Below, piece after piece: positions 1-15,303 of a stretch of DNA of 64,000 bases. The notes beneath the pieces are model-generated. The model searched no databases. It was not told the DNA's origin and saw nothing but the letters and a program-made list of their open reading frames with translations. Source of the stretch: Arenimonas sp. SCN 70-307 (lineage in GTDB: Bacteria > Pseudomonadota > Gammaproteobacteria > Xanthomonadales > Xanthomonadaceae); contig NZ_MEDO01000011.1 of the NCBI RefSeq assembly GCF_001724815.1, positions 2,059-66,058 on the forward strand, written 5' to 3'. Made by a program: the position numbers and the translations under genes. Every line of letters begins with the position of its first letter. Positions within the stretch are counted from its first letter, which is position 1.

Positions 1-1
1 T

Positions 2-595
2 GATGCTGAGGCGGCCACTTGGTACAACGTTTTCCGAAACTATGACGCTGCGTTAGGGCGTTACACGACAAGCGATCCCATTGGCCTAGGTGGCGGGATA
101 AATACGTTCGCCTATGTGCTCGGGAACCCAATTAGTCTTGTCGACCCCCTCGGTCTTGCGCCAGGCGATTGCTTCAGGTCGCTACGAGATGCTGGTCGCG
201 ATGCTATTCAATACTACAACTGGCGATCTCGCAGGGATGGCGTTGAGTATGGAGGGCGCATCCACAAGCTTGATAACGGACTCTACACCTACAGCCAAGC
301 AGTTCGTGGCACTCCGACTAGCGTAATACTACCGGCGATTTCCCGTGCAGTTGTTGGGGCATATCACACTCACCCGCCTGTCGACGGCTACGATGGCGAG
401 AACTTCTCGCCCGCGGACATAGACAGCTACCTGGGTACCGCATTGGACGTAGTGCGACAATATGGCACGCTGGAATACAGCTCATTCCTTGGAACGCCGA
501 ATGGCGTGATCCGAATGCTTGACTCCACTTCGGAGGATCCGCTCAAGCCCGTAAACCTGGTTGATGAAACGGCTGAGGGCTGCTCATGTCCATGA
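2..595 (+). CDS. Rhs/YD-repeat family protein, 3' end only (enters from left edge): end of Rhs core plus variable C-terminal toxin domain (DUF4329-like)
   Basis: Frame 2 is open from the window edge. It reads ...[46 protein letters not shown], the canonical Rhs core terminus ending in DPxGL. A ~140-aa tail follows with [29 protein letters not shown], which I recall as the DUF4329 pattern often fused to Rhs. Confidence 0.8.
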
Positions 596-1047
596 ATCGT
601 TCTCTACCCTTCCTCGCGATATCCGCCGTGCTCGGCGGACCTCTTTTAGTTGAGGCCGCATCATCGACCGGCGAGACTCCGGCGCAAACGACAGCAGAGA
701 CGGTCAATGTGGACCGAGGCGAGCTCATTTCTGAGCGAATAAGGATGCTCGAAGGCCTACTCGCGCAATCGGAGGATGAGCGCCGCGCTGAGCTCGTCTA
801 TCTGGCGACCGCCAGGTTCCTGCAGATTCTAAGCGATATGGGATCCGAAGATGCGGGCACAGGCGCGTTGACGAAGAGTCATCCGGAGATCCTGGACCCC
901 AGGAGTTATCGAATTCGGCTAAGGGACCGGGAGGATGTTCTTTTGGTGCATTTCCTGCCGAAGCTTGAGCGCATCAGAGGCGGCGGTTGGGAAATTGGCG
1001 TTGAGAAGTCAACCGGCGAAATTTTGATCGTGACTCCCTTGATGTAG
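586..1047 (+). CDS. putative cognate immunity protein of the Rhs C-terminal toxin (exported, signal peptide)
   Basis: The ATG overlaps the toxin stop by 10 nt (ATGTCCATGA). The N-terminus [27 protein letters not shown] looks like a Sec signal peptide. It holds the usual position of an Rhs immunity gene. I recognise no family. Confidence 0.55.
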
Positions 1048-1148
1048 TTCTTCGGTAAATCGACTGGAGTTCCCAGCTTTTGATGGGCCGTCTTAGCGCC
1101 CGTCTAGAAGCTTGGGGAAGCTCTCATGGCCGGTAAAGCTCAGAGCAA

Positions 1149-1201
1149 GACTAGAACTGGTGGACGCCCTGGCGTTTGCGGCTTGGTAGCGAGGGTTCCA
1201 G
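1149..1201 (+). repeat. possible degenerate attC remnant
   Basis: gaCTAgAACtggtgGACGCCctggcgtttGCGGCTTggtagcgaggGTTCCAG keeps the GACGCC..GCGGCTT..GTT blocks of the attC consensus. The R'' half is badly eroded. Confidence 0.3.
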
Positions 1202-1373
1202 TAGTGCTCAGAGTCAACCGGAATCAGTGGTCAACTCCACCGGAATACGCACCAGCTGGGACATACAATCCACTTCGGCCACGGCCGGCCCCGTTTTGTT
1301 GCCTCGAGAACAACAATTCTGCCGGGTCGGCCGTGTGCCTCTCTCCCCTCAGTTGGGAGAAGAACCGTCCGCG

Positions 1374-1718
1374 GTGGATGCTCTAAGGCAGATCAAAGAA
1401 TGGTTGGCTCGACGATCGGCCCTGCAATGGGAGCCGATTGCTTCGGACGATGCAGGCTTCAACTCAGGTGCGCGGCGAGTGGAGTGGTCCCAGATCAACT
1501 CCGTTGCGGTGTTCAAGCGGGACATGGTCACGGTTGACGATGTTTGGTTCCAGCTCGAGACAGAGCAGGGAACGATCATGATCTGCGAAGAGCAGCCAGG
1601 TTTCGACCAATGGGAGTCGCTCCTTTGCACCGCACTTCCTGCCCTCGCGACCTGGCGATCCTCAGTCATCGATCCCCCATTTGCAGAGAGCTTCAGCATC
1701 CTCTACCGTCGCACCTAA
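1374..1718 (+). CDS. hypothetical cassette protein (start uncertain: GTG 1374 or TTG 1353)
   Basis: The stop TAA lies inside the R'' box (CC-TAA-C) of the next attC. The ATG at 1176 sits inside the attC remnant and would give an implausible Ser-rich N-terminus. GGGAGA lies upstream of GTG 1374. Confidence 0.5.
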   Translation: MDALRQIKEWLARRSALQWEPIASDDAGFNSGARRVEWSQINSVAVFKRDMVTVDDVWFQLETEQGTIMICEEQPGFDQWESLLCTALPALATWRSSVIDPPFAESFSILYRRT

Positions 1719-1768
1719 CTAATAATTCAAGCAGACGCCTTCGGCGCGGCTTAACTCAGGCGTCAGGT
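1713..1768 (+). repeat. integron attC site
   Basis: ACCTAAC taataattcaagcagacgccttcggcgcggcttaactcaggc GTCAGGT, with a central GCC-TTC-GGC hairpin. Confidence 0.85.
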
Positions 1769-1773
1769 TTCGG

Positions 1774-2133
1774 ATGAAGATTATCGCAAGCGCGCTTCTT
1801 GGCCTTGTTGGCTGCGTCTCGGCTTCGGATCCGCCGATCCCCCTTCCGTCGGGCGAGTACGCGTTCACCCATAGATTCGCCGAGCACCCGACGATCCCGA
1901 GCATTCGACTTACCGTCCGCGTCAATGGGCCGCACGTTGTCGTACTAAACCCCACTGCTTCAGATCCATTTCCCGCAGGCGTCCTGGACGAGGGGACGCT
2001 CATGTGGCACGCCGAGTCAGAACAATGGATCATCGGTCGCAAGGAGGAGGACCGGTCGCTTCGTGACGTCGGTGGATGCAGCGGTGGCCCCAGAGTCATC
2101 GATCTCCGGAACCGGGTCTACTGGACGTGCTAG
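1774..2133 (+). CDS. cassette-encoded lipoprotein, unknown function
   Basis: MKIIASALLGLVGC has a lipobox (L-V-G-C). It is bounded by attC sites on both sides. Confidence 0.6.
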   Translation: MKIIASALLGLVGCVSASDPPIPLPSGEYAFTHRFAEHPTIPSIRLTVRVNGPHVVVLNPTASDPFPAGVLDEGTLMWHAESEQWIIGRKEEDRSLRDVGGCSGGPRVIDLRNRVYWTC

Positions 2134-2143
2134 TCCGGCCGAG

Positions 2144-2203
2144 GCCCAACTCATCATTCATGCCGACGTGCCTTCGGCACGCCGCTTAACTCAGGCGTTA
2201 GGC
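2144..2203 (+). repeat. integron attC site
   Basis: GCCCAAC tcatcattcatgccgacgtgccttcggcacgccgcttaactcaggc GTTAGGC, with a central CGTGCC-TTC-GGCACG stem. Confidence 0.9.
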
Positions 2204-2222
2204 CTTTTTTGCGGGAGCCACA

Positions 2223-2516
2223 GTGACAACAAGCATTGATGACCACTTTTACGACCGTGCGGACGAGGTTATTCGCCTGGCGAACAGGCAGCTCGCCGGC
2301 TCGACCCGCGGCAAGGTGAGCGCATCGTGTATGTACGCAACTGCGAGGTTTAATGCGTGGGTGAGTGCGACGGGATTCACCAGCAGCGAAGAGATGGGCG
2401 CTGCCAAGCAGGAGACCATTGAGTACTTCGTTGAGCAGTACCGCTCAATGCTTGACGAGAATCTCACCGATTACATCAGCAACTTTGATGGTTACATGCG
2501 GGCGGACAAGGCCTAA
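2223..2516 (+). CDS. DUF3144-like small protein (typical integron-cassette cargo)
   Basis: GTG start 5 nt after GGGAG. The motifs FYDRADEVIRLAN..GKVSAS.MYATARFNAWVSA..ETIEYFVEQYR..L match my recollection of DUF3144. The stop TAA is inside GCCTAAC. Confidence 0.6.
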   Translation: MTTSIDDHFYDRADEVIRLANRQLAGSTRGKVSASCMYATARFNAWVSATGFTSSEEMGAAKQETIEYFVEQYRSMLDENLTDYISNFDGYMRADKA

Positions 2517-2568
2517 CTAATCATTCAAGCCGACGCGCCCCCGAAGCTGTTTAACTCTGGCGCCATGC
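2511..2568 (+). repeat. integron attC site (R' end degenerate)
   Basis: GCCTAAC taatcattcaagccgacgcgcccccgaagctgtttaactctggc GCCATGC. R'' and the left arm are intact; the R' core is mutated. Confidence 0.6.
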
Positions 2569-2728
2569 CCCGCATTGAGTATCGTCGACGCTCTCTCCCA
2601 ACGACTGGATCAATCGTGGGGCACGCGGCTCCAGCGGATGGCGTTGGACGAATCCGAAGAGCATGGGGTCGTGGAGCTGGTTCGTGTGTGCTAGGTTCCG
2701 CGTCGATAACCAGAGGGCCAGCGGCGCG

Positions 2729-2783
2729 GCCCAACGGTTCATTCAAGCTGACGCCTTGCGCGCGGCTGGACTCAAGGTGCTGG
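2729..2783 (+). repeat. integron attC site (R' end degenerate)
   Basis: GCCCAAC ggttcattcaagctgacgccttgcgcgcggctggactcaag GTGCTGG. Confidence 0.6.
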
Positions 2784-2792
2784 GGCGCGAGA

Positions 2793-3140
2793 ATGGGAAT
2801 GTTTGACGAACCTGGTGACCCATGTCCGCTCACGGAGGAAGTCGCTCTCCTGCGGGCAGAGAAGTGTGTCGAGCCAGTTGCGCGCTTCATCATGTTCCTC
2901 TCGTGCCTGCTTATTGCCCCCGGGATGTTGATGACGGACCACCCCAATTGGATCCTTGCGGCTATAGCAGTCGCGATCTACTACTCGTCATGGGTGGTTA
3001 TATTCAGGCGATGGAGGGCGTGGGCTATCTCGGGTGGCTGCGATCCGGAGGAGCTTCAGCTCCTTGGCGAGGAGTCGGGCATTCTGCCGGCCCGCGGCTC
3101 ATTGCTATGGTATTTGCAGTGGCCGGCTCACGCGCCCTGA
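2793..3140 (+). CDS. cassette-encoded small membrane protein
   Basis: Starts MGMFDEP just after the attC. It has two hydrophobic segments (FIMFLSCLLIAPGML, ILAAIAVAIYYSSWVVIF). The stop TGA is inside the R'' CCCTGAC. The track ORF 2565..3140 spans an attC, so its upstream part is not credible. Confidence 0.55.
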   Translation: MGMFDEPGDPCPLTEEVALLRAEKCVEPVARFIMFLSCLLIAPGMLMTDHPNWILAAIAVAIYYSSWVVIFRRWRAWAISGGCDPEELQLLGEESGILPARGSLLWYLQWPAHAP

Positions 3141-3194
3141 CTGATCATTCAGGCCGAAGTGCCTCCGGCAAGCGGCTTAACTCAGGGGTTGGGC
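3135..3194 (+). repeat. integron attC site
   Basis: CCCTGAC tgatcattcaggccgaagtgcctccggcaagcggcttaactcagg GGTTGGGC. Confidence 0.8.
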
Positions 3195-3230
3195 GTTAAA
3201 GTCAACCCTCACTGTTCTCTGACCCAATCA

Positions 3231-3752
3231 ATGGAACCAGCGCAGCTCGAAGCAACGTTCGACCAGCAGTCGGCCAACTACGACCAGCAGTGGGCAAAGC
3301 TGGCCGCCTTCCGGGAGGGCATTCACCTCTTGATGGGATCCTTGTTTGCCCGCCTACCCGAACGGGCACGAATGCTCTGTGTAGGCGCCGGTACCGGTGC
3401 GGAGATTCAGGCCCTTGCCTCGCGCTTCCCCGCCTGGACGTTCACTGCGGTTGGGCCATCGGCCGGAATGGTCGCTGTCGCACAAAAGCGAGCCAGGGAC
3501 AATGGGTACGCTGACCGGTGCACCTTCCACACCGGCTACCTCGAAACCCTGCCAAGTTCGGCCCCGTTCGATTGCGCGAGCGTGTCGCCTGAACGCGTGC
3601 TTCAGATGCAAGAAGCCTATGCCAAGGATGTTGCAATCATTGCTCCCAAGAAGGTCGCAGCCATGATCGCCGCAGCAGGATTTGGGATGCCTGTTCAGTT
3701 CTACCAGGCAGGTCTCATCCATGCTTGGTACACACATCGCCTACCGGGTTGA
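3231..3752 (+). CDS. class I SAM-dependent methyltransferase-like protein, probably degenerate
   Basis: Motif I MLCVGAGTGAEI is present. The expected acidic post-I residue is absent (AVGPS). The segment after PFDCAS looks ~40-50 aa shorter than usual. Confidence 0.55.
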   Translation: MEPAQLEATFDQQSANYDQQWAKLAAFREGIHLLMGSLFARLPERARMLCVGAGTGAEIQALASRFPAWTFTAVGPSAGMVAVAQKRARDNGYADRCTFHTGYLETLPSSAPFDCASVSPERVLQMQEAYAKDVAIIAPKKVAAMIAAAGFGMPVQFYQAGLIHAWYTHRLPG

Positions 3753-3753
3753 C

Positions 3754-3785
3754 GCCTAACCCTCCCGCTTCGGCTGGTTGCAGGC
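3754..3785 (+). repeat. short attC-like remnant
   Basis: GCCTAACcctcccgcttcggctgGTTGCAGGC has R''/R'-like ends but is too short for a functional attC. Confidence 0.3.
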
Positions 3786-3907
3786 ACATTGATGCTTGTC
3801 GTAATTTTCCATGGGCCCCGTTGGCTCGAACGCTTCCTGGGACCGCTTCGCATTGCGACTGTAAGGAGCGTGATGGTTCGCCACCTGGCCAACGCAAGCA
3901 CCGCCAG

Positions 3908-3964
3908 GCCCAATTGATCATTCAAGCCGACGCCTTCGGCCCGGCTCAACCAAGGCATTAGGGC
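3908..3964 (+). repeat. integron attC site
   Basis: GCCCAAT tgatcattcaagccgacgccttcggcccggctcaaccaaggc ATTAGGGC. Confidence 0.75.
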
Positions 3965-3967
3965 GCT

Positions 3968-4408
3968 ATGAAAGAATCCAAGAAGTTCTTCACCCCTCTT
4001 CTCCTGCTGCTGCTGGCGTGTGCTGCGCACGCAGAGAGCCCGCAGGAGACGTACCAGCGGGTCAATGCCGTGGCCATCCAGGCGTTTCCAAAGGGTACGC
4101 AGGGCTATGAGCTGTTCTGGGTCGCAAGCGAGGCCTCGAGTGAGTCCGTCAACTCTTTGACAAGACTCATTGGCGCGGCCAAGCGCCAGAAGGCTCGTTG
4201 GGTCGTCGCATCGGATGATGCTGCGGCAATCAAGTCAAGTTTGCTTTCAGCTTTCGAGGCATCGACCGCGAGTAGGCGCATCCGCACCGAAATCGTCGTC
4301 GTCAGCCCGCTTTCCGGAGACCAGGAACTGGTCGACGCTGCCAAGCGGGTTGGCGCTTCGCTGGAGTTCTTTGTTCTCCCGCCGCCGCCGGCGGATTCGG
4401 GACCGTGA
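3968..4408 (+). CDS. cassette-encoded secreted protein, unknown function
   Basis: Signal peptide MKESKKFFTPLLLLLLACAAHA. It starts 4 nt after the attC R' box. Confidence 0.6.
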   Translation: MKESKKFFTPLLLLLLACAAHAESPQETYQRVNAVAIQAFPKGTQGYELFWVASEASSESVNSLTRLIGAAKRQKARWVVASDDAAAIKSSLLSAFEASTASRRIRTEIVVVSPLSGDQELVDAAKRVGASLEFFVLPPPPADSGP

Positions 4409-4421
4409 CATTGCGCATCTG

Positions 4422-4450
4422 CGCCCAGACAATTCGCTCAAGCGTCAGGC
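4422..4450 (+). repeat. truncated attC-like remnant (probable distal end of array)
   Basis: GCCCAGACaattcgctcaagcGTCAGGC keeps both ends of the attC consensus, but the centre is deleted. Confidence 0.35.
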
Positions 4451-4745
4451 GCCTTTAATGCATGCAGCACCCGGTTGGTGTCGGCGACGGTATCGAAGCC
4501 GGCGCATAGTGGAAAGTGCCGACCGAGTCACCGCAAGAGTGAACCTGTCCTCCCAACGTTCTGAGTGGTAACTCGACGGCAAGCACCGTTTCAAGCCGGC
4601 GTCCAATGTGACGCGGTGCGGCTGGTCTACTCAAAAAGCCCTGAGCCGTGTGCGGTACGTGACTTCCTGTTGGGATCTTGTATCGTTCGCTACATGGAGC
4701 ACCCCATCATCGCCATCGTGGCACCGCTGACGTCGTGCTGACGCA

Positions 4746-5009
4746 ATGGGCACCCTGAGCTTTCGCACCGCAAGCAAACCCGGGTTGTTCCTCGGCCTGG
4801 TCATGCTCGTCGCGGGCGGGGCCGTCATCGCATGGCCACCGGAGATCCTGGTCCACCACCCCACGATACGGCCCTCTGCTTTCAGCGAAACCAAGCGGGT
4901 CGAGGCCGTCACGCAAGGCAGGGCACGCTTCTATGGCGGCTGCCTGGTCGCTGCCGGCGTCTTCATTGGGCTGTTCTCGCTTTACGCCCCGCGGCACGAG
5001 CAACCATGA
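4746..5009 (+). CDS. small membrane protein (hypothetical)
   Basis: Two hydrophobic helices. ATGA overlap with the next gene. Confidence 0.4.
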   Translation: MGTLSFRTASKPGLFLGLVMLVAGGAVIAWPPEILVHHPTIRPSAFSETKRVEAVTQGRARFYGGCLVAAGVFIGLFSLYAPRHEQP

Positions 5010-5509
5010 GAATCCTGATCTTTGGTAACTCCGGCTCCGGCAAGTCCACGCTCGCCCGTCGGCTGTGCGAGGCGCATGGCCTGCCGCACCTCGACCTCGA
5101 CGCCATCGTGTGGGAGCCGGGGGAAGTAGCCGTGCAGCGTACGCCCGAGGCCATCGCAGCGTCGCTGTCGCAGTTCATTGCGGCGAACCCGGCCTGGGTC
5201 ATCGAGGGGTGTTACGGCGAGCTGGTGGAGGCCGCGTCCGGCCACTGCACCGAACTCGTGTTTCTCAACCCCGGCCTGGAAACCTGCCTGGCGCACAATC
5301 GCGCCCGCCCCTGGGAGCCGCACAAGTACGCTTCGAAGGAGGCGCAGGACGCGATGCTGGAGAACCTGCAGGCCTGGGTGGCTGGCTACTACGAGCGCGA
5401 CGACCCGTGGTCGTACCGCGCGCATCGTCGTCTTTTCGATGCCTTCCCCGGCCAGAAGCGCGAGCTGACCTCTGCCCTGGGGGCTGCTGACTACAGGGAA
5501 CTGCCATGA
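5006..5509 (+). CDS. P-loop kinase-like ATPase (adenylate kinase / topology-modulation protein family)
   Basis: MRILIFGNSGSGKSTLARRL Walker A at the N-terminus; ~167 aa. Confidence 0.7.
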   Translation: MRILIFGNSGSGKSTLARRLCEAHGLPHLDLDAIVWEPGEVAVQRTPEAIAASLSQFIAANPAWVIEGCYGELVEAASGHCTELVFLNPGLETCLAHNRARPWEPHKYASKEAQDAMLENLQAWVAGYYERDDPWSYRAHRRLFDAFPGQKRELTSALGAADYRELP

Positions 5510-6216
5510 AGCCCTCCGAAGTCATCGCCCTGCTGGAGCGTGAGCGCGACGAGCGCGGCATGCGGAACTGGGAGCGCCTGGGTGAGGGCACTGGCGGAAT
5601 GCGCAGCTTCGGCATCGGGCTTACGCGCCTGCGAAAGCTGGCCGCAGGAATAGGCCGCGACCCGGCGCTGGCACGGGCGCTTTGGGAGTCGGACGTGTAC
5701 GACGCGAGGGTGATCGCGCTGCTGGTCGACGACCCGCGCACGATGACCCCCGAGCAGGCCGAGCGCTAGGTGGATCAGCTTGCCGGCGGGCAGCTGGCGC
5801 ATGTCTTCGCTTCGTGCGATGCGACTCTGGCCAAGACGCCCTTCGCGGTTGAACTGGCCGCGCGGTGGGTGCTTGCCCCCGACCCGGTTCGCCGGGCCTG
5901 CGGTTACGGACTGATCTACGAGGCATCGAAGTTCCCCGCGAAGAAGGCGCCCACGGAAGCGTTCTTCCTGGGCCACATCCAGCGAATCGCCGCGACGATA
6001 GACGACGAGCCGGAACAGGTCCGCCTGGCGATGGCCACGGCGCTGATGGGTATCGGCAAGCGAAGCGCGGTGCTCAACCAGGCGGCGCTGAAAGTGGCCC
6101 GCGCCGTGGGGCCGATCGCGTTCACCTCGGCCAGCGGCCAGTGCGAGCCTTTCGACGTGGCCAAGCACCTGGACAACGAGCGGCTCAGGAAAAAGCTGTC
6201 GGAGAATCGCCAGTGA
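5506..6216 (+). pseudogene. DNA alkylation repair protein (AlkD-like HEAT-repeat family) interrupted by an in-frame TAG
   Basis: ORFs 5506..5769 and 5770..6216 are in the same frame, separated only by TAG at 5767-5769 (..EQAER*VDQLAGG..). TGG (Trp) would restore a continuous ~236-aa protein. Confidence 0.65.
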
Positions 6217-6467
6217 ACGCAACCGAGGATTGCCTCGGGGCACCGGGCTCCTGGCTCGCCTGGAAAGAGGGCGGCACGCTGTTCATCCGTGGCGTGGTGC
6301 GTTATCCCAACAATTTCAGCACGGCCCGTCTCTCGCCGGACCCAAAGTGGACATCGGACACCGGCACGCCGCATTTCGTCCTGGCCAGCCGCGGCCTGCT
6401 TGCCGGCCACCCCGCGCAGCGTGATGATGGGCCCCGGTCGTCCACCATCCATCCAGGGAGAAGGGTC

Positions 6468-6740
6468 ATGCCGCAATACCTGATCGAGCGCGAGATCCCC
6501 GGCGCAGGGAGCATGTCCGGCGAGCAGCTTCGCGATGCCTCGCGCCACTCCAACGACGTGCTGGCCCAGCTTGGCCCGGAGATCCAGTGGGTCCACAGCT
6601 ACGTGGCCGGCGACAAGATCTATTGCGTCTACAACGCACCGAGCGAGGACCTGATCCGCTCGCACGCCGAAAAGTCCGGCTTCCCGGCCAACCGCATCAC
6701 GCCCGTCTCCGCGGTCATCAATCCCGCCACCGCGAAGTAG
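6468..6740 (+). CDS. DUF4242 domain protein
   Basis: MPQYLIEREIPGAG..QWVHSYVAGDKIYCVYNAPSEDLIRSHAEKSGFPANRI matches my recollection of DUF4242. GGAGAAGGG lies upstream. The frame stays open upstream to GTG 6213. Confidence 0.7.
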   Translation: MPQYLIEREIPGAGSMSGEQLRDASRHSNDVLAQLGPEIQWVHSYVAGDKIYCVYNAPSEDLIRSHAEKSGFPANRITPVSAVINPATAK

Positions 6741-6750
6741 GGTCGAGCCC

Positions 6751-7176
6751 ATGCCTCGTGGCCTTCGTGTGGTGTTGGCGACCGTGGCCGGCTTCGTCGC
6801 CGGCAGCGTGGTGAACATGGGCCTGATCATGCTCGGTGGCGTGGTGGTGCCGCCGCCGGCGGGCACCGATACGTCCACCATGGAAGGGCTGCAGGCGGCG
6901 CTGCCGCTGTTCGGTCCGCAGCACTTCCTGTTCCCGTTCCTGGCGCACGCGCTGGGCACGCTGGCCGGCGCGCTGGTGGCGACGTGGCTGGCGCCGGGAC
7001 GCAGCGCCGGGCCGGCCTGGGCAGTGGGCGTGCTGTTCCTGCTGGGCGGCACGGCCAATGCCTTCATCCTGCCGGCGCCAGCCTGGTTCATCGCTGCCGA
7101 CTTGCTGCTGGCCTACCTGCCGATGGCCTGGCTCGCACAGCGGCTGGCGGGACGGGCGCCTACGGCGGCGCCCTGA
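6751..7176 (+). CDS. membrane protein (hypothetical)
   Basis: Four hydrophobic segments; GC3-rich codon usage. Confidence 0.55.
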   Translation: MPRGLRVVLATVAGFVAGSVVNMGLIMLGGVVVPPPAGTDTSTMEGLQAALPLFGPQHFLFPFLAHALGTLAGALVATWLAPGRSAGPAWAVGVLFLLGGTANAFILPAPAWFIAADLLLAYLPMAWLAQRLAGRAPTAAP

Positions 7177-14873: not shown

Positions 14874-15097
14874 GACGAACGGCCCCTCGCGGCATTGCAC
14901 CGCGCGTGGGGCCGTCGCATTCTTGGCCCGTCGACTGACCCTCAGCGTCACTTTGCGACGCGAAGCAACCGAATGCTCTGCTCGGCGCCCGGCACCAGGT
15001 CCCCTGGATTCCCCCTGTTCCAAGACCCGCCGGGCGCCGACTTTCTTCCTTCGGCGCCGTGTTTTCCCCGGCTTGCCTGAAACCCGCGCATAAAAAA

Positions 15098-15130
15098 GGG
15101 CCTGGCGCTCCCCCCCGGGAGCGCCAGGCC
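15098..15130 (-). terminator. orphan intrinsic terminator-like hairpin reading on the minus strand
   Basis: GGGCCTGGCGCTCC..GGAGCGCCAGGCCC stem. A6 on the + strand immediately to the left (15092-15097) becomes a U-run only for a minus-strand transcript. Confidence 0.45.
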
Positions 15131-15303
15131 CTGGCATCCCTACCACGCGCCTGACCAGCCCCTGTTCAGTCTGGTCGACGCCCCCCGGCGTTGGCCGTGG
15201 CAGGTGCCTTTGGATGAATGCAGGAAGCGTGCCAACCCGCCCGCGGGGTGCGCCAGCCTCCCCGGCGCGGGATAATCGCGGCCTATGTCCCGGACCCCCG
15301 CCC

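Follow-up and report, generated by a model that had tools for sequence, protein, structure and literature searches.

Integron cassettes are mobilised by IntI, a tyrosine recombinase that recognises attC sites as folded hairpins, excising cassettes by attC x attC recombination and inserting them at attI; the crossover point lies between the G and the TT of the R' box. When the bottom strand of an attC folds, R'' pairs with R' and L'' with L', which leaves a spacer unpaired and two bases of the L stem, a G and a T, extrahelical; these two bases mark the recombinogenic strand. The present study concerns a stretch of 64 kb (the window, to which all coordinates refer unless another contig is named), in which we identify the segment 1367–4450, with a probability of about 0.92, as part of a sedentary chromosomal integron cassette array of the Xanthomonadales type that is now decaying and has no integrase in view. 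The segment holds about eight promoterless cassettes, six of which still end in a recognisable attC. Attachment sites of this type form the Xanthomonadales-like (XL) clade, which includes the attCs of aadA1a, aadA2, aadB, sat2 and catB3 (Ghaly et al. 2021, PMC8352920). Clusters of attC sites lacking an integron-integrase (CALINs) were defined by Cury et al. (2016, PMC4889954), who found that 38% of them adjoin an insertion sequence (IS). Within Xanthomonas, integrons occur in 93% of genomes and inactivation of intI is widespread (Colombi et al. 2025, bioRxiv 10.1101/2025.06.18.660453).

Reading of the sequence together with a repeat finder revealed six imperfect palindromes of 56–60 nt, all on the + strand, with the layout RYYYAAC, 5 nt, ATTCAAGCCGAC, a short hairpin, GCGGCTTAACTCAGGC and GTTRRRY (sites A–E and G in Table 1). 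Every one of them comes after a + strand open reading frame (ORF), all ORFs are co-oriented with the sites, and three stop codons fall within R'' (TAA at 1716–1718, TAA at 2514–2516 and TGA at 3138–3140). A plasmid search with the window consensus returned more than 5000 records at 80–90% identity across the whole 56 nt, the matches being located at the 3' ends of class 1 cassettes encoding aac(6')-IIa, aadB, arr-6, aadA16, sat2, qacL and catB3. A covariance model, R1, was built from nine attCs (aadB, aadA1, aadA2, aadA16, sat2, catB3, qacL, arr-6 and aac(6')-IIa) taken from annotated plasmids of mobile integrons, with no window sequence included, and was given the textbook structure, in which a 7-bp R stem and an unpaired spacer lead to an L stem that carries two bulged bases and is capped by a terminal hairpin. 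Searched against the whole 64 kb on both strands with filters off, R1 matches exactly six sites (E 1.9e-13 to 0.0096), which occupy 2.3 kb of the + strand from 1713 to 3964; the next-ranked matches are G+C-rich noise at E ≥ 0.035. A sequence-only hidden Markov model (HMM; nhmmer), for which 64 attCs were taken from other genomes, recovers these six at E 2.6e-12 to 1.9e-7 and no others. In sequence as well as in structure, the sites agree with bona fide attCs. Since R1 detects six clustered sites on one strand and none elsewhere, the repeat is not a dispersed repetitive extragenic palindrome (REP).

The predicted secondary structure agrees with this assignment. In the model alignment the 7-nt R stem is paired in all six sites, and in each of them two top-strand bases stay unpaired, the C of TTCAAG and the A of GAC (GAA in site E), whose bottom-strand counterparts are G and T. 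Folded as DNA, the bottom strands of sites A, B, E and G give the R stem, the spacer and the bulged L stem. For covariation, 68 matches (66 distinct) were collected from the window and related arrays; in their alignment, which was fitted to the model and so favours structure, 88% of cells are paired across the 66 distinct sites and both-side changes occur in 21 of 22 pairs. None of 500 shuffles reaches the observed values, and shifted registers fall to 23–43% paired. The compensatory change in the central hairpin proposed in the original prediction, a reading of the window made from its sequence, amounts to a stem-length difference between two sites, while covariation across the 66 sites is genuine.

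In its design the array follows the XL attCs and the integrons of Xanthomonas, Lysobacter and Luteimonas, with which it shares the 56–60-nt GCCTAAC...TTCAAGCCGAC-hairpin-GCGGCTTAACTCAGGC-GTTAGGC arrangement. Its membership of the XL clade is indicated by the closeness of the sites to the attCs of aadA1, aadA2, aadB, sat2 and catB3 and by a Xanthomonadales host. Other traits held in common with Xanthomonadales integrons are low-G+C cassettes in a high-G+C genome (57–62% in 1–5000 versus about 70–76% in the remaining 59 kb), cargo that is for the most part unknown, an intI that is often lost or inactivated, and strain-variable cassette content. The attCs of class 1 resistance cassettes are 80–90% identical over the whole site and have the same R, L and hairpin layout with two bulged bases; unlike class 1 integrons, the array is chromosomal, carries no resistance genes, intI1, 5' conserved segment (5'-CS) or 3' conserved segment (3'-CS), and has several mutated core triplets. 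The original prediction had already described six well-formed palindromes, their likeness to aadA and Xanthomonas attCs, three ORFs ending inside R'', the common orientation of ORFs and sites, and the fall in G+C, and each of these points is borne out here. It had also named failure of an attC covariance model and dispersal of the repeat as outcomes that would speak against integron ancestry; what was found is six R1 matches and none in the other 59 kb.

Comparison with sister contigs, recovered by exact-protein look-ups, exposed variation at a cassette boundary. Contigs L001, L016 and L106 share 99.8% identity with the window; L018, at 97.5–98% identity, lacks window positions 1768–2144 and with them exactly one cassette, cassette 2. 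In its place L018 carries a single site that is A-like from R'' through the hairpin plus GCGGC and B-like from G/TTAGGCCTTT (G/TTAGGCC) onward, the slash marking the crossover, which is confined to 12–17 nt that include the G/TT cleavage point. This insertion or deletion fits IntI-type excision or insertion, and the shared stretch would be short for RecA-dependent recombination. Upstream of cassette 1, L018 carries an intact attC (405–461, 44.6 bits), a different cassette with a 123-aa protein and the end of another attC; the 123-aa protein was found on no longer contig. An unrelated deletion in L018 removes window positions 3199–3332.

The left border of the array is formed by two nested insertions. 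Homology with L018 starts exactly at an IS terminus (1366/1367), and in L001 and L016 this IS end adjoins TTAACTTAAGGCGTTAC, the final 17 nt of an attC of which L018 has an intact copy (405–461). Relative to L001 and L016, the window has a 17-nt deletion (TTAACTTAAGGCGTTAC) at 1366/1367, by which it has lost what was left of the interrupted attC together with 4 nt from the start of cassette 1. A minus-strand ORF starting at window position 1264 is restored once the Rhs element described below is removed (with the L110 flank added), and the N-terminal 125 aa of the rebuilt transposase match Zn_ribbon_ISL3 (1.6e-7) and HTH_Tnp_ISL3 (8e-9). Because the ISL3-family IS is inserted within an attC, the array must once have extended leftward. 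We propose that ISL3 inserted into the attC, that the Rhs element subsequently inserted into ISL3, and that a small deletion followed in the lineage of the window; the integrase-less cluster would thereby have formed from a longer array cut on its left side. Contigs L001 and L106 stop 55 nt into the IS, the two contigs that carry the 270-aa protein (L105 and L106) share one end point within it, and all available contigs break inside ISL3, which suggests that this IS is multi-copy in the genome. The interrupted minus-strand ORF had 0 matches when metagenomes were scanned for it, and no second copy of the IS end was present in any locus searched. Beyond ISL3, the left half of the interrupted attC is predicted to read ...GCCTAACCGCTCATTCAAGCCGACGCCATCGGCGCGGC plus an 8-bp duplication.

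The element that splits ISL3 is transposon-like, about 9.7 kb long, with ends TGCGGGCGCTG...GGAATACGCA and a 6-bp target duplication, and the part in the window (1–1251) continues in L001:56–8974. Its right end forms an imperfect terminal inverted repeat of about 36 nt with the left end, TGCGGGCGCTGG...; the left end (TGCGGGCGCTGGTTGAC...) is joined to five different flanks (L001, L002, L103, L104 and L111), and the element is seen with three different right flanks. Contigs L003–L006 show 100% identity with the window as far as 1251, where L003 and L006 pass into unrelated DNA and L004 and L005 end. A further insertion, in sample ERR14064759, has AAAAAA on both sides (L111 and L006). A complete Rhs gene with RHS/YD-shell domains is present on sister contigs L001 and L002. 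The element ends, target duplications and varied flanks indicate that the Rhs gene is transposon cargo and that window positions 1–1251 lie outside the integron. The original prediction had started the array at 1149 and used the Rhs gene as an integron landmark; both must be revised, as the array proper starts at 1367, 1149–1200 lies inside the Rhs element, and the gene belongs to a transposon-like element, flanked by CCAGCT, that splits ISL3.

Within the array, decay is visible at the core sites. Both invariant triplets, AAC in R'' and GTT in R', are kept in site B only; the altered triplets are GTC in A, GAC in E, GCC in C, GCT in D and AAT/ATT in G, where both are mutated yet pairing is retained. 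The R'' RYYYAAC and R' GTTRRRY boxes are therefore present as a family trait, eroded in five of the six sites, and the site scores of 18–51 bits compare with 45–90 bits for most sites of Lysobacter koreensis, whose array is less eroded than that of the window. With site B alone keeping both triplets, the array is decaying. Of three eroded copies originally proposed in addition to the six sites, one remains plausible: the stretch 4424–4450, directly after the last ORF, where the rise in G+C begins, scores 12.1 bits with R1 (E 0.89 over the full 64 kb and 0.042 when 3 kb are searched), which is not significant. The other two lack model support. The stretch 3753–3786 (GCCTAAC...GCAGGC), a doubtful remnant, is matched neither by R1, also in a 3-kb search, nor by the HMM, and 1149–1200 has no covariance-model or HMM match. 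An attC-like stretch at 4577–4648, spotted by eye, is likewise unsupported by R1 (also in the 3-kb search) or the HMM. Eroded triplets, lower scores, a truncated-looking methyltransferase gene (below) and two remnant sites lead us to infer that maintenance of the array by an integrase has ceased and that none nearby would now service it.

A tblastn search with IntI1 gave no match in the 64-kb window or in L001, which covers 8.5 kb upstream, as had been predicted for the part in view. The same search over all loci found a single intI (50–56% identity), in L042, a Rhodanobacteraceae metagenome-assembled genome, where a frameshifted intI at 5376–6390 on the − strand lies upstream of an attC array of the same type; a possible attI core, GTTAGGC at 6571–6577, is followed by an array of at least 13 model matches. 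No attI was found upstream of cassette 1, where a truncated attC and the IS end are present instead (no search was made for the promoter Pc). The array of Lysobacter koreensis (L030), with about 20 R1 matches and the same drop in G+C, begins at a lone GCGTTAGGC core (5186–5194) beside chromosomal genes, and no intI occurs in the 5 kb upstream of it; integrase-less arrays therefore exist, and are common, in this family. A CALIN has at least two attCs spaced by under 4 kb; the window has six within 2.3 kb, neither it nor the 8.5 kb upstream shows an intI, and an IS adjoins the cluster, as it does 38% of CALINs. Unlike a free-standing CALIN, the mechanism of separation is visible, ISL3 in an attC and then a second transposon, and the segment is probably half of a split array. 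The term CALIN, used in the original prediction, thus describes what can be seen, but the array probably continues beyond the insertions; the polarity of the attCs places attI and intI to the left, as had been noted.

This bears directly on whether a complete integron once lay or still lies here, the segment being its distal part, with an intact or pseudogenised intI and an attI beyond the ISL3 and Rhs elements, a possibility to which we assign slightly less than even odds. The position of ISL3 inside an attC shows that the array continued left, L018 carries at least two more attCs upstream, and the arrest of L001 and L106 at 55 nt inside the IS is what a multi-copy repeat typically produces, unlike a true end. 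The classical layout of intI on the − strand and array on the + strand is seen in L042, from a related family, and integrons, often with inactivated intI, are prevalent in Xanthomonas (93% of genomes; bioRxiv 10.1101/2025.06.18.660453). Set against this are the absence of intI from the window and the 8.5 kb of L001, the L. koreensis array without intI in 5 kb upstream, and the eroded triplets, which argue for a long absence of integrase selection. A different history, in which the cluster arose by IntI-mediated insertion at a secondary, non-attI site and never belonged to a resident integron, appears very unlikely. CALINs can arise in this way (PMC4889954; bioRxiv 10.1101/2022.09.11.507474), and no attI is visible; against it stand the eight consecutive cassettes, and the array that sister strains share, with further cassettes upstream, and a similar arrangement in Novilysobacter viscosus both favour an old, vertically inherited array.

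Almost no credence can be given to the notion that the repeats are generic REPs, bacterial interspersed mosaic elements (BIMEs) or terminator palindromes unrelated to integrons. They are, to be sure, imperfect palindromes in intergenic positions whose single-sequence fold energies are hardly better than those of shuffled sequences; zero copies occur in the other 59 kb by covariance model or HMM, however, and the sites lie on one strand only, right after ORF stops, with 80–90% full-length identity to the attCs of aadB, aadA and sat2 cassettes. In 1.26 Mb of other genomes the model matches consist of co-oriented clusters only, and no T-run follows the hairpins. Several observations nonetheless weigh against reading the segment as an integron array. 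Folded as single sequences, the sites have weak z-scores (−0.35 to −2.2); C and D, besides their low model scores (18.2 and 22.7 bits), do not adopt the canonical fold as their minimum-free-energy structure; and the covariance-model support comes from the home-built R1 and not from the attC_4 model of IntegronFinder. With core triplets mutated in five of six sites, present-day recombination competence is doubtful. The cassette 2 difference could in principle have arisen by homologous recombination between the roughly 80%-identical sites A and B, although they share only about 15 nt there. Finally, no intI or attI was found, so that the word integron refers to the cassette side alone, and the DNA left of ISL3 was recovered by none of the routes followed.

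Taken as a decaying Xanthomonadales-type cassette array, the segment adds one environmental, Lysobacteraceae-like example to a cassette pool regarded as a source of the clinical aadA, aadB, sat2 and catB3 cassettes. It also offers a base-level example of the passage from array to integrase-less cluster, through an IS in an attC, a second transposon, small deletions and triplet decay. XL arrays, the kinship of their sites with aadA-type attCs and CALINs beside ISs have all been published already; the environmental example and its well-resolved history of nested insertions are new here, and current understanding is unchanged.

Table 1. Coordinates of the attC sites, cassettes and bordering features in the window.
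Feature	Position	Strand	Description
attC A	1713–1768	+	R'' ACCTAAC, R' GTCAGGT; 46.3 bits, E 6.5e-12; nhmmer 6e-12
attC B	2144–2203	+	R'' GCCCAAC, R' GTTAGGC; 51.1 bits, E 1.9e-13
attC C	2511–2568	+	R' eroded (GCCATGC); 18.2 bits, E 0.0096; nhmmer 1.9e-7
attC D	2729–2785	+	R' eroded (GCTGGGG); 22.7 bits, E 3.2e-4; nhmmer 3.4e-8
attC E	3135–3194	+	R'' CCCTGAC, R' GTTGGGC; 37.6 bits, E 4.4e-9
attC G	3908–3964	+	R'' GCCCAAT, R' ATTAGGGC; 29.4 bits, E 2.1e-6; nhmmer 2.5e-10
Remnant, plausible eroded attC	4424–4450	+	R'' side CCCAGACAATTCG joined to R' side CTCAAGCGTCAGGC; central 33 nt (L''-hairpin-L') missing
Cassette 1	1367–1762	+	ORF 1374–1718, 114 aa, no family; attC A
Cassette 2	1763–2197	+	ORF 1774–2133, 119 aa, lipoprotein-like signal ending LVGC; attC B
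Cassette 3	2198–2562	+	ORF 2223–2516, 97 aa, DUF3144; attC C
Cassette 4	2563–2779	+	217 nt, no credible ORF of its own; attC D
Cassette 5	2780–3188	+	ORF 2793–3140, 115 aa, hydrophobic; attC E
Cassette 6	3189 to about 3786	+	ORF 3231–3752, S-adenosylmethionine (SAM) methyltransferase domain; then doubtful remnant 3753–3786
Unit 7	about 3787–3958	+	short unit; attC G at its end
Cassette 8 (last recognisable)	3959–4450	+	ORF 3968–4408, 146 aa, signal peptide; remnant 4424–4450
Rhs C-terminal end	1–595	+	end of a 1454-aa Rhs protein; PxxxxDPxGL hinge, then DUF4329 toxin tip (Pfam 1.4e-13)
153-aa ORF	586–1047	+	overlaps the Rhs stop codon; no family match
Rhs element right end	1048–1251		ends ...CCACCGGAATACGCA at 1251
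Target-site duplication CCAGCT	1252–1257		same hexamer precedes the left end at L001:50–55
ISL3-family IS 5' end	1258–1366	−	terminus 1366; transposase ATG 1264–1262; split after codon 4 by the Rhs element
P-loop kinase-like gene	5006–5509	+	167 aa; no flanking attC; ATGA overlap with both neighbours

Cassette limits were set with the crossover at G/TT. The ORF of cassette 1 most likely starts at GTG 1374; a longer reading of 180 aa (1176–1718) was rejected as a gene, being a chimera across the transposon end and the IS end. The original prediction could assign no function to the cargo. This holds for most cassettes, but two families are now recognised: DUF3144 for the protein of cassette 3 (Pfam 2e-31; PDB 2LYY, 8e-24) and a SAM methyltransferase for that of cassette 6, which matches Methyltransf_25 (Pfam, 3e-10) over profile positions 2–71 of 97 and looks truncated. 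The ORF of cassette 5 is also called as a 115-aa gene on L020.

The Rhs element carries, on L001 and L106, orf270 (− strand), orf104, an IstA-like rve transposase of 509 aa, an IstB-like ATPase of 250 aa, the Rhs gene and the 153-aa ORF, which from its position is presumed to be the cognate immunity gene of the Rhs toxin. The copy on L002 lacks orf104 and istAB. The orf270 protein has no significant match in Pfam, NCBIfam or PDB; its best is the sub-threshold NCBIfam family PPA1309_fam (E 0.015, 15 bits against a cut-off of 70). A separate IS21 insertion was considered for istAB in L001 and set aside, since the order with orf270 and orf104 is conserved in a distant relative, which argues for one element, although TGTCA repeats just upstream of istA could point to a separate insertion. 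That relative, L113:7005–11027 (JGI 3300045240, 277 kb), is a module of four genes (273, 104, 509 and 251 aa) with 52%, 63% and 71% identity for the three proteins measured and the same terminal 11 nt. Neighbours of the module include genes of a cyclic-oligonucleotide-based anti-phage signalling system (CBASS; SMODS, HORMA and SAVED), an HNH gene and others; the other end of the L113 element was looked for and not located. The transposon family may carry varied conflict-system cargo.

To the right of the array, the kinase-like gene of Table 1 has homologues in cassette settings elsewhere. In L030, L042 and L033 a homologue with about 70–75% amino acid identity is bounded by attCs on both sides and ends inside R'', where its stop codon falls, and others have an attC on one side (for example L031, L053 and L027); nucleotide homology to those genomes is limited to the ORF. 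The closest match in a scan of genome contigs has 79–80% amino acid identity, and genes with 60–80% identity occur in loci whose labels name many phyla (Gemmatimonadota, Acidobacteriota, Planctomycetota and Cyanobacteria). Xanthomonadales-type attCs directly flank the gene in at least 10 of 80 loci, which indicates a widely travelling cassette gene. In Novilysobacter viscosus (L025) the kinase-like gene comes about 2 kb after the end of an array, and in three other genomes a homologue of the 141-aa gene at 6751–7176 adjoins the kinase homologues, in either order.

The G+C content at 5–7 kb is 67.5–68%, still under the baseline, and the region 4450–7176 may consist of fossil cassettes; the covariance-model search found no attC remnant there in support of this. 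A bolder idea, which we consider improbable, is that the operon-like genes at 4746–7176, with their intermediate G+C, record interconversion between chromosomal genes and cassettes. In one direction, cassettes would have been domesticated, losing their attCs and fusing into an operon of overlapping ORFs; in the more radical one, resident genes would be the source from which cassettes are made, and this, if true, would bear on the unsolved origin of cassettes. Two observations were made in the same region. The DNA-alkylation-repair gene (PF08713) at 5506–6216 is interrupted by an in-frame TAG at 5767–5769; in L018 and L019 it is intact (236 aa). Window positions 6385–6761, part of an SCO4226-like gene, are replaced in L018 and L019 by different sequence with two small ORFs (105 and 29 aa), so that strains also differ at this second place, which lies outside the recognisable array.

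The host is probably a high-G+C (~72%) member of the Xanthomonadales, Lysobacteraceae-like and, in contrast to the hosts of the described XL integrons, uncultured and represented by metagenome contigs; the closest homologues of the flanking gene are found in Arenimonas, Novilysobacter and Lysobacter. Rfam contains no attC family that the sites in the window could match. The only match in the window at an Rfam gathering score is asX1, a Xanthomonadaceae small RNA, at 15092–15206 on the − strand (full length, 74.9 bits against a gathering score of 70), which can serve as a taxonomic marker of the window.

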